Both the position numbers and the translations under genes were made by a program. This document shows, one piece after another, positions 4,183 to 64,000 of a stretch of DNA of 64,000 nt. The DNA lies in the NCBI GenBank assembly GCA_036847185.1, contig DAIUAM010000001.1, forward strand, positions 2,331 to 66,330, written 5' to 3'. The first letter of the stretch is position 1. Each line of letters opens with the position of its first letter. A model generated the notes under the pieces. It saw nothing but the letters and a program-made list of their open reading frames with translations. It was not told the DNA's origin and made no database searches. The stretch comes from Actinomycetota bacterium. Lineage in GTDB: Bacteria; Actinomycetota; UBA4738.

Positions 4183-4277
4183 GGCCTTCGCCTCCTCACC
4201 CCGAATGGTAGCCCAGCGCCTTGATCGCCGGACGCTGGGTCGGCGGCACCGCTCGTTTCTTGCGAGAATGCGTCGGC

Positions 4278-4694
4278 ATGATCGATCCGGCCTCGGAGAA
4301 GGGCCGCCACGTCCAGGAGCGGCTGCGAACCGACACCGTCGTGTGGCTGACCACCGTCCGCGCCGACGGGCAGCCCCAATCTTCTCCGGTGTGGTTCGTG
4401 TGGGACGGGGAGACGATCCTGCTGTACAGCAAGCCGTCGTCCGGGAAGATCCCGAACCTGCGGGCGAACCCCAAGGTCTCGCTGCACTTGGGCGACCGGG
4501 GCGGCTCAGATGTGATCAGCATGGAGGGCGTGGCCTCGATCGACGACCTCGCCCCGCCGGTCCACGAGCTCTCCCGGTACGTGGAAAAGTACCGGGGCCT
4601 GATCGCCGAGCTCGGCACCGAGCCCGAACCGTTCGCCCGGGACTATTCGGTCCCCATCCGCATCCGCATCACCCGGACCCGCCACCCCTACTAG
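4278..4694 (+). CDS. PPOX-class F420-dependent oxidoreductase (Rv3369-like)
   Basis: WLTTVRADGQPQSSPVWF...K..NLRANPKVSL split-barrel signature; GAGAAT -10-like hexamer 8 nt before the ATG. Confidence 0.85.
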   Translation: MIDPASEKGRHVQERLRTDTVVWLTTVRADGQPQSSPVWFVWDGETILLYSKPSSGKIPNLRANPKVSLHLGDRGGSDVISMEGVASIDDLAPPVHELSRYVEKYRGLIAELGTEPEPFARDYSVPIRIRITRTRHPY

Positions 4695-28761: not shown

Positions 28762-29151
28762 ATGGAGCGGAGACGGATCAGCGCCAATAGGCCCTGGGAG
28801 CGCATCGTCGGGTACTCGCGCGCGGTTCGGGTCGGGAACGTGATCGAGGTCAGCGGGACCGCGCCCGCCGACGTCCAAGGACGGGTCCTCGCACCGGGCG
28901 ACGTCTACGGCCAGGCCCGGGAGGCCCTGCGGATCATAGGGGAGGCGCTCGGTGAGGCGGGCGCGTCGTTCGAGGATGTGGTTCGAACCCGCATCCTGCT
29001 GGCCGACGCCTCGCAGTGGGAGGCCGCCGGCCGGGCCCACGGCGAGGTGTTCGCCGATATCCGGCCCGCCAACACAACCATCGGCGTGAGCGGGTTCGTG
29101 GACCCCGAGATCCTCGTGGAGATCGAGGCCACGGCGATCGTCGACGGCTGA
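28762..29151 (+). CDS. RidA/YjgF-family protein
   Basis: WERIVGYSRAVRVG...VSGT...DVVRTR...IRPANT...LVEIEATA. Confidence 0.9.
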   Translation: MERRRISANRPWERIVGYSRAVRVGNVIEVSGTAPADVQGRVLAPGDVYGQAREALRIIGEALGEAGASFEDVVRTRILLADASQWEAAGRAHGEVFADIRPANTTIGVSGFVDPEILVEIEATAIVDG

Positions 29152-29186
29152 CGGCCTTCGGCCGAGCCCGCCGTAGAATGATTGAC

Positions 29187-29528
29187 GTGGAAACGAACAC
29201 GACCGTGGTGTCGGTGACGGAGCGTGCGGCCGAGAAGGCCATCTCGCTGGCGCACCGCGAGGGCTTCGCCGAGGCGTTCCTCCGGCTCCGCGTGCTGGCC
29301 GGCGGGTGTTCCGGCTTCTCCTACAAGCTCTCGTTCGAGCAGGGGGCGTCCGACGGCGACAACGTCGTCGAGTCCTTCGGCCTGCGCGTCCTGGTCGATC
29401 CGAAGAGCGCGCCCATCGTGTCCGGCTCGACGATCGAGTTCAGCGACGCCCTGCTCGGCGGCGGGTTCAAGGTGAACAACCCGCAGGCCGTGCAGGAGTG
29501 CTCCTGCGGTGAATCCTTCTCGATCTAG
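29187..29528 (+). CDS. A-type Fe-S carrier (HesB/IscA/ErpA)
   Basis: GGCSGFSY, NPQAVQECSCGESF; TAGAAT 7 nt before the GTG (leaderless); alternative ATG at 29178. Confidence 0.92.
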   Translation: METNTTVVSVTERAAEKAISLAHREGFAEAFLRLRVLAGGCSGFSYKLSFEQGASDGDNVVESFGLRVLVDPKSAPIVSGSTIEFSDALLGGGFKVNNPQAVQECSCGESFSI

Positions 29529-29549
29529 AGGACGTTCGGCGCGGCGGCT

Positions 29550-30227
29550 TCAGCCGCGGACGTCGACCGGCGAACCGAGTCCCTTGACCTCCAGAAGCTT
29601 GAGCTCCATCTCGGTCCAGGGCGAACGCGTTTCGACCGAACCCAGCGTGGACGTCCACAGGCGTTCCGGGACCTCCCGGTCCAGACCCGCGGCGAACAGC
29701 CCGTCGAAGGTCGAACCCGCCAGGAAGTCGGACTTCGCGCTGGCCGGGGTGTCGGCTTCGGGCGCCAGTAGGTCGTAGCCCAAGCGGTCCTCCGCGTAGC
29801 CGGGGAGCCACCGCCAGAACCGGGACGGGGCGGCGATCAGGACGGTCGCCTGCTCGACCGCATCCTTCGACTTCGCCACCGCCATCTTCACGATGTCCCC
29901 GATGACCCCGGTGGCGAATCCCGCGTGGTCCTCACCTCGTGGGTGGACCTGCACCTCGATGGCCAGCTGAGGGATCTTCGACTTCGCGGCCACCAACACG
30001 TCGGTGGGCCTGGCCAGCGAACCGGACTTGCCCAGCACCCCGCCGACGCTGACCAGCTCGGTCCGTCCGAACTGCAGTGCGCGCCGGAGCGACGCCGAGA
30101 GGTCCGCATCGAACACGAACTTCGCGGTTGGGGCCGAACGCGACGCCAGGCCGAGGTGGTTCATCAGGGCCTGGACCTCGCCGCCCGCCGCGTACAGGGC
30201 AGCCTGGACGGCCTCGGGTTCGAGCAT
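29550..30227 (-). CDS. Hypothetical protein, possibly PD-(D/E)XK-like fold
   Basis: 225-aa ORF filling the gap between real genes; PTDVLV...LAIEVQ...DIVKM pattern. Confidence 0.6.
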   Translation of the reverse strand: MLEPEAVQAALYAAGGEVQALMNHLGLASRSAPTAKFVFDADLSASLRRALQFGRTELVSVGGVLGKSGSLARPTDVLVAAKSKIPQLAIEVQVHPRGEDHAGFATGVIGDIVKMAVAKSKDAVEQATVLIAAPSRFWRWLPGYAEDRLGYDLLAPEADTPASAKSDFLAGSTFDGLFAAGLDREVPERLWTSTLGSVETRSPWTEMELKLLEVKGLGSPVDVRG

Positions 30228-30370
30228 CGCTAGGCCCCCACCTGGATCCGGCGGGCCATGTCAGGTTCGTGCACGCGCCGAGAGTAACAACCGGAAGGGT
30301 CAGGTGGAAGTATCGCCGCCGGTTGGTTTGGCGAGCCTGTTGCCGCGAGGGCGCCGCCTATACTGGCGCG

Positions 30371-31561
30371 ATGGCGCCTTCGTCGGCCGACAAGACGCAG
30401 TGGAAAGACCTCTATGACGAGGTTGTGACCACCGGACTGTGCACCGGATGTTCGGCCTGCGTGGTGGTCTGCCCCTTCCACGTCCTCGGCTACGAGGACG
30501 ATAAGCCCGTCCAGCTCCAGCCCGAAGGCCTCGACATCTGCGTGCACGGCGACAAGGGCTGCGACATCTGCACTCGGGCATGCCCGCGGTTCCGCGAATG
30601 GGAGCCCGAGCTCGACCGGATGCTGTTCGGCCGGACCCGCCTGCCCGAGGAGATCATCGGGGTCCACCAGGACGTGGTGCTGTCGCGTGCCGCCCAGCCC
30701 GAGGTGCTCATGACCGGGCAGGACGGGGGGACCGTTTCGGCGCTCCTGATCTGGGGCCTGAGAACCGGGCGGATCGACGGCGCGGTGACCTCGAAGCTTT
30801 CCGACGAGCGGGCGTGGGACGCCGTGCCGGCAGTGGTCACCGACGAACAGGGCGTCCTGGACACGGCAGGCTCGCGCTACACCTACTCGGCCAACCCCCT
30901 GGCCCTGGTCAAGGCCGCGGAGATGGGCCTGTCGAAGGTGGCGCTGGTCGGGATGTCCTGCCAGGCCAGCGTCACCGGGGCCCTGGAAGCCCGGCGGGTC
31001 AACAAGTGGCGCAAGCGGATCGCGTACACGTTCGGCCTGCTGTGCTCCAAGACCTTCACGTACGACGGCCTGATGGTCGAGATCGCCCAGAAGGAGCTGG
31101 GCCTGTCGCTCGACGACGTGATCCGGGTCAACGTGAAGGGCAAGCTCCTGTTCTATACGAAGGACGGCCAGGAGGTGACCTATCCCCTCAAGGCCTCGCA
31201 CCGGTTCACCCGGGAGGGGTGCCTGCATTGCCCAGACTTCGCCGCCGAGCACGCCGACATCTCGTTCGGCGGGCTCGGGCAGAGCGACGGCTGGACGCTC
31301 ACCATCATCCGAACCGACCGAGGGATGGAGCTCTGGCATGACGCCGTCGAGGCCGGCGTGGTCGAATGGCGCCCCGGTGCCGACGACCCCGCCGCCCTGG
31401 CCCTGATGGACAAGCTCGCTGCCCACTCGCGCAAGCGGTGGCCGGCCGACGGCGAGGTGCCGGCGGGATGGTCCGTGCCCGGCCTGCTTCCCACCGCACC
31501 CGGGCCCGTCGTGTCCCCGAGCCCTCGCGAGCAGCAGACGGTCGAACCGGTCGAACGCTGA
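30371..31561 (+). CDS. FrhB/FpoF-like coenzyme F420 oxidoreductase subunit with N-terminal 2x[4Fe-4S] domain
   Basis: CTGCSACVVVCP...CDICTRACP, GQDGGTVSALL, VGMSCQ, GLLCSKTF, CLHCPDF; TATACT 6 nt before the ATG. Confidence 0.88.
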   Translation: MAPSSADKTQWKDLYDEVVTTGLCTGCSACVVVCPFHVLGYEDDKPVQLQPEGLDICVHGDKGCDICTRACPRFREWEPELDRMLFGRTRLPEEIIGVHQDVVLSRAAQPEVLMTGQDGGTVSALLIWGLRTGRIDGAVTSKLSDERAWDAVPAVVTDEQGVLDTAGSRYTYSANPLALVKAAEMGLSKVALVGMSCQASVTGALEARRVNKWRKRIAYTFGLLCSKTFTYDGLMVEIAQKELGLSLDDVIRVNVKGKLLFYTKDGQEVTYPLKASHRFTREGCLHCPDFAAEHADISFGGLGQSDGWTLTIIRTDRGMELWHDAVEAGVVEWRPGADDPAALALMDKLAAHSRKRWPADGEVPAGWSVPGLLPTAPGPVVSPSPREQQTVEPVER

Positions 31562-31611
31562 CCGCCCGCCGTGGACCCCCCGGGCGCGTTCCCCCACCCA
31601 GCCAGGATCCG

Positions 31612-31779
31612 ATGGCCGACTTCGTCAAGGCGATCGGCGCGCTGGTCGTCGCCGTCGGCGGGCTGGTCCTGCTTGTGGCCGGGATCGTGAAGTCACAGAT
31701 GATCGCGGTGGTGCTGGGAGCGGTCGCGTTCGCCCTGGCAGTCGCGCTGGGCACCTCGCGGGCGATCCGGAAACGGTAG
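31612..31779 (+). CDS. Small two-TM membrane protein (55 aa)
   Basis: MADFVKAIGALVVAVGGLVLLVAGIV...AVALGTSRAIRKR; AGGA upstream. Confidence 0.6.
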   Translation: MADFVKAIGALVVAVGGLVLLVAGIVKSQMIAVVLGAVAFALAVALGTSRAIRKR

Positions 31780-31789
31780 GGGAGGGTCC

Positions 31790-32119
31790 CTAGTCGGGGG
31801 CGACGAAGGCGGTGACCACCGGGTGGTCCTTGTCGACCGCGCCGACCTGCGCGGCCCCTCCCGGTGAACCGATCCCGCTCACGGAATCGTTGAAGAACTC
31901 CGCGTTGATCGGTGTGTACTGTTTCCACTCCGCCGGGACATCGTCCTCGTAGAAGATGGCGGTCACCGGGCAAACCGGCTCGCAGGCCCCGCAGTCGACG
32001 CACTCGTCGGGCTGGATGTAGAGCATCCGGGCGCCCTCGTAGATGCAGTCCACGGGGCACTCGTCGACGCAGGCGCGGTCCTTCACATCGATGCAGGGTT
32101 CGGCGATCGTGTAGGTCAT
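31790..32119 (-). CDS. fdxA: 7Fe ([3Fe-4S]/[4Fe-4S]) ferredoxin
   Basis: MTYTIAEPCIDVKDRACVDECPVDCIY...CVDCGACEPVCPV; GAGGAG RBS and TAGAAT -10. Confidence 0.95.
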   Translation of the reverse strand: MTYTIAEPCIDVKDRACVDECPVDCIYEGARMLYIQPDECVDCGACEPVCPVTAIFYEDDVPAEWKQYTPINAEFFNDSVSGIGSPGGAAQVGAVDKDHPVVTAFVAPD

Positions 32120-32198
32120 CGGATTCTCCTCGTTTCCACGGTGTCGACCGTGTTTATTCTAGCCGCGCCGGGCGCGGACGCAACCCGGGACCGCCGTT

Positions 32199-33239
32199 TC
32201 ATCGCTCCACGGCCGTCTCCGGCGCCGCCGCCAGGACGGTTCCCAGCATGGACGAGAACGGATCGAGCGACGCGGTGACCGGGTAGCAGAGCACCAGGTC
32301 CGCACCGGCGCGGCGGTACTCCGCGAACCTGGCCACCGCCTCCTGCCGGCCTCCCGCCACCGTCACGGCCATGACGAGCTCCTCGGGAACGTCGGCGATC
32401 CGGCCTGCCTCGAACGCCGCGGCCGCTGCGCCCGCCGCCTCGCCGAGCTCCATGGCCTCGAACTGGGCGCGGTAGTGCGGGATGGTCGCGTAGCGTCCCG
32501 TCATCTCGCGAAGCGCAGCGAGGGCGACGGCACGTTCGACGTTCAGGCAGGCTCGGACGTAGACGGCCACCGTGATCGCGGCCGGGTCGCGCCCGGCGTT
32601 CGACGCCGCCTGAGCCAGCCTGGTGCGGGCCCGGGCCACGCGTTCGGGCGGGCACCAGTTCAACAGGACGCCGTCACCGACCTCGCCTGCCAAGGCGACC
32701 ATCCGGTCACCCAAGGCGGCCAGCCAGATGGGCGGCGGGCCCAGCTCCTCGGCGAGAGGCAGAGAGAGGGTGAACCCGTCGGTCCCGAAACCGCCGTCAC
32801 CGCGGGCGTGCTTCCCGGAGAGGGCTGCGCGCACCGCCCGCACGTAGTCGCGGAGGAGGTCGACCGGACCCCGGCCCCCCGCCAGGGCCACCTGGTGCGC
32901 CGAGGCCGGCAGGCCCGACCCGAGCCCGAGTACCATCCGCCCGCCGGAGAGCTCGTGCACGGTCGCCGCACCCATCGCGGTCACCGCCGGGCTCCGAGAC
33001 CACATCGGGACCACGCCGGTCCCCAGGCGCATCGACGGCGCGGCCAGTCCGAACCCGGCCAGCGTGGCGAACGCTTCGCGACCATCGATCTCCGGGACGA
33101 ACACCGCCCCGTAGCCCGTGTCCTGCGCCACACCCAGCACCTGCAGGCATCCCTGCCAGGGCAGCGCGTCGCGGATGACCAGCCCCGTCCCGGCGAGCGG
33201 CCGCACGCCCTCCGCGGAGTCGCCGGGTATCGTGCTCAC
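32199..33239 (-). CDS. LLM-class (probably F420-dependent) oxidoreductase
   Basis: RLGTGVVPMWSRSP, SGGRMVLGLGSG, PIWLAALGDRM..LAGEVGDG. Confidence 0.85.
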   Translation of the reverse strand: MSTIPGDSAEGVRPLAGTGLVIRDALPWQGCLQVLGVAQDTGYGAVFVPEIDGREAFATLAGFGLAAPSMRLGTGVVPMWSRSPAVTAMGAATVHELSGGRMVLGLGSGLPASAHQVALAGGRGPVDLLRDYVRAVRAALSGKHARGDGGFGTDGFTLSLPLAEELGPPPIWLAALGDRMVALAGEVGDGVLLNWCPPERVARARTRLAQAASNAGRDPAAITVAVYVRACLNVERAVALAALREMTGRYATIPHYRAQFEAMELGEAAGAAAAAFEAGRIADVPEELVMAVTVAGGRQEAVARFAEYRRAGADLVLCYPVTASLDPFSSMLGTVLAAAPETAVER

Positions 33240-33268
33240 AGTCCCGCCATGGTGGCACAGGGAGGACC

Positions 33269-33928
33269 GTGGACGCGCTGACCTTTCGGACCGAGGACGG
33301 CCTGAGACTGGAGGGCGAGCTTCGGGTCGACGGCGTGGCCAGGGGCTCGGCGGTGATCTGCCACCCACACCCGCTGCACGGGGGCAGCAAGGACCATCCG
33401 GTACTGTGGGCCGTCCGGATCGAGCTCGCCCGGCGCGGGTTCGCGGTGCTGACCTTCAACTTCCGCGGGGTGATGGGGTCGGAGGGCTCGCACGGCGGCG
33501 GGATCCCGGAGTGCAACGATGCGCGCGCGGCGATCGGCCGCGTTCGGGAGGAGTCGCAGGGGCCGACGCTCGTGTGCGGGTGGTCGTTCGGCGCGAGCGT
33601 GGCTCTCCGCGAGGCGGTGGACGACGAACGCGTCGGCGCTCTGGCGGTCCTCGGCTTCCCGCTGGTCTCGAGCCTGCCGCTCGGGATGGCGCCGCTTCCG
33701 GAGCCGGCCCAGCTCAGCCGGTTCGGCCGGCCGGTGCTGTTCGTGAGCGGGGACGCCGACCCGTACTCCCCGGTGTCGGAACTACGCGAGCTGGCCGCGC
33801 GGTTCGACGATGCGACGGTCGAGATCATGACCGGCACGGACCACTTCTTCCCGAAGCGAGAGCGGGAGGCTGCCGCACTCGTGGGATCGTTCGCCGAGCG
33901 ACGCCTGTTCGAACGGTTGGATCGGTGA
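33269..33928 (+). CDS. Alpha/beta hydrolase
   Basis: CHPHPLHGGSKD, FNFRGV, GWSFGA nucleophile motif, GTDHFF. Confidence 0.88.
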   Translation: MDALTFRTEDGLRLEGELRVDGVARGSAVICHPHPLHGGSKDHPVLWAVRIELARRGFAVLTFNFRGVMGSEGSHGGGIPECNDARAAIGRVREESQGPTLVCGWSFGASVALREAVDDERVGALAVLGFPLVSSLPLGMAPLPEPAQLSRFGRPVLFVSGDADPYSPVSELRELAARFDDATVEIMTGTDHFFPKREREAAALVGSFAERRLFERLDR

Positions 33929-63443: not shown

Positions 63444-64000
63444 TCAGCCGACCGGCTGGCGGACCGACGACGGGAGCGAGAACACCATGTGCTCCTCGAC
63501 CGTCCGGAGCTGTTCGACCTCCGTGGTGCCCAGCTCCTTCAGGTGGTCGATGACGCGTTCGACCAGCCATTCGGGCGCGGAAGCTCCACTGGTCACCCCG
63601 ATCGTCTCGGCGCCTGCCAGCCACTCGGGCCGGATCTCGGATTCGTCGTCGACGAGGTGGGCGCGACACCCCAGCGCCCGGGCCACCTCGACCAGCCGGC
63701 GCGAGTTCGAGGAGTTGTCCGAACCGATCACCAGAATCACATCGGACCGCCCGGCAAGCTCCTTCACCGCCTCCTGCCGGTTCTGTGTCGCGTAGCAGAT
63801 GTCGTCCCGCGGGGGGGCTTCGAGCAACGGGAAGCGCCGGCGGAGGACGTCGATGACCTCGTTCGTCTCGTCGACGGAGAGCGTGGTCTGGGAGAGGTAC
63901 ACCACCCGGGCTGGATCGGGGATCTCGACGGTTTCGGCTTCCTCAGGCGAGCCGACCAGGATCACGTGTCCGGGCGCCTCGCCGCTGGTCCCGACGACCT
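63444..64000 (-). CDS. ispH: 4-hydroxy-3-methylbut-2-enyl diphosphate reductase (5' part outside the window)
   Basis: YLSQTTLSVDET, DDICYATQNRQ, GSDNSSNSRRL, GVTSGASAPE. Confidence 0.95.
   Translation of the reverse strand, partial: VVGTSGEAPGHVILVGSPEEAETVEIPDPARVVYLSQTTLSVDETNEVIDVLRRRFPLLEAPPRDDICYATQNRQEAVKELAGRSDVILVIGSDNSSNSRRLVEVARALGCRAHLVDDESEIRPEWLAGAETIGVTSGASAPEWLVERVIDHLKELGTTEVEQLRTVEEHMVFSLPSSVRQPVG

Follow-up and report, generated by a model that had tools for sequence, protein, structure and literature searches.

What might an FrhB-like protein with a fused ferredoxin domain do in an apparently aerobic actinobacterium, when no hydrogenase, formate dehydrogenase or Fpo genes lie nearby? 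The question is raised by a gene at positions 30371-31561 of a 64,000-nucleotide stretch of contig DAIUAM010000001.1 from an uncultured soil bacterium of the Actinomycetota (the whole stretch is called the window here). An initial annotation had described its product as a 2x[4Fe-4S] plus FrhB-domain protein, had read it as an oxidoreductase between coenzyme F420 and iron-sulfur proteins, and had clustered it with downstream genes for a ferredoxin (fdxA) and a luciferase-like monooxygenase (LLM) family enzyme. We give a probability of roughly 0.5 to the reading that the gene encodes a soluble, free-standing F420:iron-sulfur-protein (ferredoxin) oxidoreductase, predicted to work like the soluble FpoF of Methanosarcina. 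The cofactor-ligand architecture, the similarity to F420-dependent family members and the linkage to F420 biosynthesis (cof) genes in sister clades speak for that part of the initial annotation, whereas the fdxA/LLM clustering fell away as evidence for it. The gene and its domains (aa, amino acids) are as follows:

30371-31561, forward strand: stand-alone Fd-FrhB-like gene, 396 aa, predicted F420:iron-sulfur oxidoreductase; Pfam and NCBIfam domains, with a full-length match to PDB 8riu_B at 4e-48.
30425-30595, forward strand: N-terminal ferredoxin domain (aa 19-75); Fer4 family matches, with eight cysteines for two [4Fe-4S] clusters.
30677-30904, forward strand: FrhB_FdhB_N domain (aa 103-178); PF04422 at 66.2 bits, with an invariant Q117-D118-G119-G120 motif.
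30932-31375, forward strand: FrhB_FdhB_C domain (aa 188-335); PF04432 at 120.3 bits, with C197, C225, C284 and C287.

The domain composition is borne out by the Pfam domains and the cysteine motifs. Both Pfam gathering scores were exceeded (22 bits for FrhB_FdhB_N and 23.3 bits for FrhB_FdhB_C), and the start at 30371 is used by gene callers in four independent assemblies, the open reading frame (ORF) from 30077 being an upstream extension. The ferredoxin domain exhibits the cluster motifs C24-x2-C27-x2-C30-x3-C34-P and C57-x6-C64-x2-C67-x3-C71-P, whose eight cysteines are invariant in 17 diverse homologues; the four cysteines of the FrhB_FdhB_C domain are likewise invariant in these homologues and align with the cluster-ligand cysteines of 3zfs_C (FrhB) and 8riu_B. 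Since all twelve ligand cysteines are present, the predicted cofactor set comprises three [4Fe-4S] clusters and a flavin, the same set as in FpoF, Fsr's N-terminal half and the zeta subunit of the carbon monoxide dehydrogenase (CODH) that reduces F420. Judged by its sequence, the protein lacks no part of the cofactor-binding architecture found in the F420-reactive FrhB/FpoF module, and from the conserved family motifs and the cof linkage in sister clades we infer that it binds flavin adenine dinucleotide (FAD) and reacts with F420. A six-residue insert in the second ferredoxin motif (C-VHGDKG-C-x2-C-x3-CP; 30539-30583, aa 57-71) was common to the bacterial clades A-C defined below, and the Bathyarchaeia relatives retain the canonical C-x2-C-x2-C-x3-CP at this place.

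The most similar known structure was the zeta subunit of the F420-reducing CODH, 8riu_B, aligned over its full length (query 12-350 to chain 10-335); it was followed by 3zfs_C and other FrhB chains (E-values of 4e-43 to 9e-42), the F420-reducing Fwd subunit 8rja_E (6e-41), Fsr (7npa and 7np8; 7e-37) and FdhB (8rvu_E; 1e-16), with HCAR (5dqr_A) only at rank 13 (27.5 bits, E-value 1.4e-5, against 130-167 bits for the F420-reactive members). An AlphaFold2 model built from a shallow alignment (at least 74% identity) reached a mean predicted local distance difference test score of 56.5 and was used for the fold search only; Foldseek returned 21 significant matches with it, all of them FrhB-family chains, 8riu_B being first at 2e-21. 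At the superfamily level the window protein is, by these comparisons, a member of the FrhB/FdhB/FpoF superfamily ('FDRC' in PMC8498797), and it is far closer in sequence to the F420-reactive members than to HCAR, which accords with the FpoF/FrhB-like label of the initial annotation.

Individual relatives resemble the window protein in different ways. The CODH zeta subunit is built, according to PMC11493965, from ferredoxin and F420-reductase domains and a C-terminal extension, and this three-part layout is shared by the window protein, 8RIU_B and 8RJA_E (both from Ca. Ethanoperedens thermophilum); the identity is however about 28%, those subunits belong to the CODH and Fwd complexes, respectively, and neither cdh nor fwd genes were found in the window or the related loci. 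FpoF and FqoF share with it the single chain, the N-terminal 2x[4Fe-4S] domain, the FrhB domain with its own [4Fe-4S] cluster and the location of the gene outside a partner operon, and the reaction proposed for the window protein is identical to that of the soluble ferredoxin:F420 oxidoreductase FpoF of Methanosarcina mazei, whereas the window protein is bacterial, belongs to an apparently aerobic host, has no Fpo or Fqo genes nearby and carries the C-x6-C insert in its second motif. FrhB shares the FrhB_N and FrhB_C domains, the four cluster cysteines and the QDGG, SRYTYS and ADIS-GG motifs, but it has no ferredoxin domain fused to it and depends on FrhA and FrhG, and genes for these two were absent from the window and the 10 kb beside it. 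The N-terminal half of Fsr has the same arrangement of ferredoxin and F420H2-oxidase domains (PMC10229431), while the 396-aa window protein has no fused siroheme sulfite/nitrite reductase domain and no NIR_SIR match. HCAR and BciB share the fold at a distance and work with ferredoxin, FAD and iron-sulfur clusters; they differ from the proposed enzyme in making no use of F420 and in their phototrophic hosts, and no photosynthesis genes were found in the window.

Because the FrhB fold extends past F420 chemistry, HCAR being one of its members, the protein might instead be an F420-independent FAD/iron-sulfur reductase in which electrons from ferredoxin reduce a small molecule at the flavin, in the way that HCAR and BciB reduce intermediates of chlorophyll. 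The marginal similarity to HCAR makes this a very improbable reading, and it also runs against the cof linkage in the nearest outgroup clades and the F420-type PPOX and LLM genes of the window.

The stand-alone family was assembled from three scans of one-genome-per-species contigs together with look-ups of contigs encoding close homologues, which gave 196 distinct loci; an exhaustive HMMER search yielded 3496 representative clusters at E<=1e-3, with just a handful full-length above 45% identity. Loci were binned by identity to the window protein, the bins approximating tree clades (L220, at 45%, groups with clade B and L057, at 59%, with clade A):

Clade A, at least 60% identity, 91 loci: the window's own clade, uncultured Actinomycetota metagenome-assembled genomes (MAGs).
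Clade B, 46-59%, 68 loci: Acidimicrobiales/Acidimicrobiia, among them the cultured Aciditerrimonas ferrireducens JCM 15389 and one MAG each of Ilumatobacter and Ca. Poriferisodalis.
Clade C, 40-45%, 17 loci: for the most part a third lineage of Actinomycetota (41-45% identity), the bin also holding a Verrucomicrobiia locus (L199, 43%).
Group D, below 40%, 19 loci: Nitrospinota-like, delta-/myxobacterial and Chloroflexi MAGs, Bathyarchaeia, Hadarchaeota and methanogens.

In a rough neighbour-joining tree of the FrhB domain, drawn with no bootstraps, clades A and B were sisters, with clade C, the Verrucomicrobiia locus, the Nitrospinota-like group and Bathyarchaeia as successive outgroups, and the methanogen paralogues, the CODH zeta subunit and FrhB lay further out than Bathyarchaeia; the nearest outgroups of A and B are the cof-linked clades. 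No MAG was found to hold genes of two clades when contig names were compared, so the clades look like sets of orthologues carried by different lineages. Two copies, 73% and 60% identical to the window protein and with the same ErpA/FdxA/LLM synteny, were observed in one MAG (L013 and L057 in CAWAPY01, MFD02840.bin.2.41), for which a mixed bin of two related genomes is more likely than a duplication.

Linkage to F420 biosynthesis was observed in several of these groups. In clade C, cofC/fbiD divergently adjoins the FrhB-like gene at a distance of about 50-200 bp in all 12 loci with upstream DNA (for instance L110:821-2691, and L146-L158), and the three cofC genes checked reached 147-157 bits on TIGR03552 (cut-off 105); in L157 (2796-9296), a short cofE (251 aa, without the FbiB C-terminal domain), cofD, a fused 798-aa fbiC and cofC lie directly upstream. 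In the Nitrospinota-like loci L119 (2502-9238) and L120 (5739-12476), a 38%-identical homologue stands within a complete F420 biosynthesis operon of the order cofG, cofH, Fd-FrhB-like gene, fbiB C-terminal-domain-like gene, cofD, cofC and cofE, in which the five cof genes exceed their equivalog cut-offs and the fbiB C-terminal-domain-like gene falls below its own (148.9 against 249.55). The Hadarchaeota locus L133 has cofE, cofD, cofH, cofG and cofC beside the FrhB-like gene; cofE is a neighbour in Bathyarchaeia (L114 and L141) and cofD in Verrucomicrobiia (L199). Overall, a cof gene was present within the fetched flank of 14 of the 17 loci in the 40-45% bin and 4 of the 19 group D loci, and the sampled cof calls exceeded the NCBIfam cut-offs. 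As the linkage recurs in several unrelated lineages, gene context provides strong support for a stand-alone family that would handle F420. In addition, the PPOX gene and the Mer-like LLM gene of the window are predicted markers of F420 use, the PPOX gene being an indirect one for the organism.

The same linkage could also mean that the protein is an accessory of F420 biosynthesis, passing electrons to the radical S-adenosylmethionine clusters of FO synthase (CofG/CofH/FbiC) or to an FbiB-C-terminal-type reductase that converts dehydro-F420-0 to F420-0. The place of the gene in L119 and L120, with cofH on one side and a stand-alone fbiB C-terminal-domain gene on the other, the divergent pairing with cofC in clade C and the short L157 cofE without a reductase domain would all suit such a role. 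We nevertheless hold it to be improbable, since in clades A and B, the two largest, no linkage to cof was seen; F420 is a substrate and not a nascent product for all characterised relatives; and a reductase acting on a new cofactor would be expected anyway in the operon that introduces it.

The second line of context is the isolation of the gene. Pfam annotation of the window and of 10 kb past its end gave no hydrogenase, formate dehydrogenase, Fpo/Nuo, CODH or sulfite reductase genes, in agreement with what had first been noted for hydrogenase, formate dehydrogenase and Fpo, and no hydrogenase, formate dehydrogenase or Nuo genes were found next to the stand-alone gene across the 196 loci. Archaeal paralogues that dock on larger enzymes are usually encoded beside those enzymes (PMC9012536), as is the actinobacterial paralogue L135 described below; the consistently stand-alone context favours a diffusible partner. 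The protein could otherwise be an F420 input/output module that can detach, using its ferredoxin domain to dock on a larger iron-sulfur enzyme encoded elsewhere, such as an 11-subunit Nuo-like complex without NuoEFG (which would give an FpoF/FqoF-like F420H2:quinone oxidoreductase), a 2-oxoacid:ferredoxin oxidoreductase, a sulfite reductase or a glutamate synthase. This is a possible reading to which we give limited credence. The structure closest to the protein, 8riu_B, and also 8rja_E, are docking subunits; the fpoF of Methanosarcina is itself unlinked from its operon, and a distant actinobacterial paralogue (L135) lies between a NIR_SIR reductase and siroheme genes. An EFG-less nuo cluster, proposed to be F420-coupled, is reported in Acidimicrobiia (Ca. 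Actinomarinales; PMC7771536), but Streptomyces, which also has a truncated nuo cluster (PMC7771536), was not among the carriers found. Moreover, no gene for a partner enzyme was present within 8 kb in the 196 loci, motif scans for NuoB, NuoD and NuoH were null, and the score on the FpoF model is far under its cut-off.

For the preferred reading, a free-standing ferredoxin-linked oxidoreductase, the proposed mechanism is that F420 or F420H2 would exchange a hydride with FAD in the FrhB domain, and that the FrhB-domain [4Fe-4S] cluster and both clusters of the N-terminal ferredoxin domain would then carry single electrons, in one direction or the other, between the flavin and a diffusible ferredoxin or some other iron-sulfur protein; FdxA, encoded 0.2 kb downstream, would be one candidate partner only. 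The potential of F420 is about -340 mV and that of the [3Fe-4S] cluster of 7Fe ferredoxins about -420 mV, which makes transfer from reduced ferredoxin to F420 the downhill direction. Both the identity of the partner and this direction of flow are points that we infer. Soluble FpoF is credited with ferredoxin:F420 oxidoreductase activity in the part of PMC9012536 that cites Welte and Deppenmeier 2011.

Several results weigh against this reading. The scores on the named models fall below the cut-offs, with 181.7 bits on the NCBIfam FrhB model TIGR03289 (equivalog cut-off 331.5) and 147.4 and 141.4 bits on the FpoF/FqoF models NF040616 and NF006808 (cut-offs 475 and 444). The AlphaFold2 model is of low confidence. 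No cof gene was found in the flanks of about 160 clade A and B loci, and no cof or fbi genes in the 64-kb window or 10 kb past its end. The literature search found no characterised bacterial FrhB-type enzyme. Finally, the FdxA neighbourhood is conserved about as well as unrelated genes and is essentially absent in Acidimicrobiales. The methanogen relatives at about 30% identity scored about 140-170 bits on the FpoF model (cut-off 475) and hence are not FpoF, and the comparison set contained no true FpoF. A scan of the genome collection with the actinobacterial FbiC of L157 gave, among the matches listed, none from a MAG carrying the FrhB-like gene (contig names compared by eye).

The neighbouring genes that bear on the fdxA/LLM question are the following:

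29178-29528, forward strand: ErpA/IscA-type iron-sulfur cluster carrier, upstream of the FrhB-like gene; TIGR00049 at 106.7 bits (cut-off 58.8).
29550-30227, reverse strand: hypothetical 225-aa protein between the ErpA-like and FrhB-like genes; no Pfam or NCBIfam match, kept in 5/44 loci.
31612-31779, forward strand: hydrophobic 55-aa ORF between the FrhB-like gene and fdxA; called only in the near-identical assemblies L001-L004 and in 0/44 clade A loci.
31790-32119, reverse strand: 7Fe ferredoxin FdxA, candidate partner; NF045480 FdxA_Actino at 173.7 bits (cut-off 125), best PDB match the 7Fe ferredoxin 2v2k_A at 1e-45.
32199-33206, reverse strand: predicted F420-type LLM oxidoreductase, directly upstream of fdxA; PF00296 Bac_luciferase at 160.9 bits.
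33269-33928, forward strand: alpha/beta hydrolase, divergent from the LLM gene; PF20408 at 49.2 bits, kept in 33/44 loci.

The placement of fdxA and the LLM gene downstream on the opposite strand stood as first described. Both are convergent to the FrhB-like gene and so lie outside its transcription unit. A promoter and terminator scan of 29100-33400 gave nothing exceeding shuffled expectation. FdxA exceeds the FdxA_Actino equivalog cut-off, and its translation, read directly, carries the motifs C-x7-C-x3-CP and C-x2-C-x2-C-x3-CP. The best NCBIfam match of the LLM protein, TIGR03841 (Rv3093c type), reached 151.4 bits against a cut-off of 213.65; the top matches in NCBIfam and the PDB are without exception F420-dependent LLMs or Mer, the best structure being Mer 1z69 at 1.5e-29, and by these matches the protein is of the F420 type, outside every named subfamily. 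An alternative start of the LLM gene lies at 33239, the end coordinate of the region originally annotated.

Of the clade A loci, 44 had 8-kb flanks that were complete, and the neighbours were retained in them to different extents: the ErpA-like gene in 44/44; FdxA in 41/44; LLM in 41/44; a NUDIX hydrolase in 39/44; cystathionine gamma-lyase in 36/44; and the alpha/beta hydrolase in 33/44, as listed. As FdxA is barely more constant than unrelated neighbours, its presence reflects background synteny among related genomes. In clade A, fdxA was downstream and convergent in 71 loci, with a median gap of 2.7 kb from the FrhB-like stop and a maximum of 5.8 kb; the gap was below 600 bp in just 25 loci, and in L065 a PAS histidine kinase gene and a PETase-like gene lie between the two. 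Within 8 kb of the clade B genes, fdxA was present in 2/68 loci, LLM in 1/68 and the ErpA-like gene in 1/68, and the conserved neighbours there, identified by reading sequences, encode a histidine phosphatase and DUF3090-like, SCO1664-like and uracil-DNA glycosylase-like proteins. The proposal of a functional fdxA/LLM cluster with the FrhB-like gene was accordingly rejected: the arrangement is confined to one clade, convergent, broken by inserts and of background-level synteny, and it is missing in the Acidimicrobiales orthologues of about 50% identity. The fdxA gene beside the FrhB-like gene looks like a neighbour by descent and not a demonstrated partner.

The tight conserved pair of this region is LLM-fdxA itself, on the same strand, 79 bp apart in the window and adjacent in 54 of 59 loci, so that an F420-type LLM may be co-transcribed with a 7Fe ferredoxin. 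The most constant clade A neighbour of the FrhB-like gene is the ErpA-like gene, which lies on the same strand in 82/82 loci, with a gap below 200 bp in 35/82, and may be co-transcribed with the FrhB-like gene, whose product needs three clusters. In the window the two are separated by the opposite-strand 225-aa orphan gene listed above.

Bacteria are known to reduce F420 by Fgd, with glucose-6-phosphate, or by Fno, with NADPH. The homology as such is no novelty, since annotation pipelines already name such proteins 'coenzyme F420 hydrogenase subunit beta'; the interest of the locus rests on the family-wide pattern and not on the local fdxA/LLM neighbourhood. Two recent reviews give archaea as the only hosts of FrhB-type F420 enzymes (PMC8498797; PMC8518648), and the literature search found no FrhB-cof linkage described. 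A broader proposal, which we regard as doubtful, is that the FrhB-type 'F420 redox-coupling' family has in the stand-alone proteins its first branch among bacteria, either as a ferredoxin-linked F420 reductase inherited or transferred with cof genes and providing a main route from the ferredoxin pool to F420 in uncultured aerobic Actinomycetota, or as an electron-donating accessory of F420 biosynthesis. If the ferredoxin-linked route is real, it would tie LLM, PPOX/FDOR, xenobiotic and antibiotic reductions to the low-potential iron-sulfur pool in aerobic soil bacteria, and would offer a compact single-subunit enzyme for F420 recycling. The cultured carrier A. ferrireducens JCM 15389 makes the hypothesis directly testable.

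Elsewhere, the window has a G+C content of 70%, and its DNA matches a 153-kb permafrost metagenome contig and MAG GCA_036783625.1. It also contains hut genes, genes for cystathionine beta-synthase and gamma-lyase, polyamine transporters and aldehyde dehydrogenases, and paaABCD without paaE. The ErpA-like gene, the PPOX gene and the incomplete paa cluster were all present as originally noted, the second being:

4221-4694, forward strand: predicted F420-dependent PPOX-class oxidoreductase; TIGR03667 at 147.4 bits (cut-off 125.3) and TIGR03618 at 81.7 bits (cut-off 79.05).

This gene divergently adjoins paaA-paaB-paaC-paaD (window:1954-4694), a cluster without the paaE reductase gene, and the PaaE-less epoxidase genes are 26 kb from the FrhB-like gene; nothing observed here spoke for the initial suggestion that the FrhB-like protein could supply that epoxidase. 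The end of the window falls within ispH/lytB (63444-63965; full gene in L145:11222-12193), which encodes a ferredoxin-dependent iron-sulfur enzyme of isoprenoid synthesis.

Two arrangements were observed among the more distant paralogues. In an Actinomycetes MAG (L135:5930-10569), genes for a NIR_SIR reductase (664 aa), a 31%-identical FrhB-like protein, and a siroheme synthase and methylase lie in a row, a set that looks like a split bacterial Fsr-like F420-dependent sulfite/nitrite reductase. For the methanogen paralogues among L130-L137 (about 30% identity), an ORF of about 500 aa lies about 2.3 kb upstream and carries, as a motif match only, the GltB flavin mononucleotide-domain motif GGTGAAP; this arrangement would fit the 'F420-dependent glutamate synthase' group of PMC9012536.

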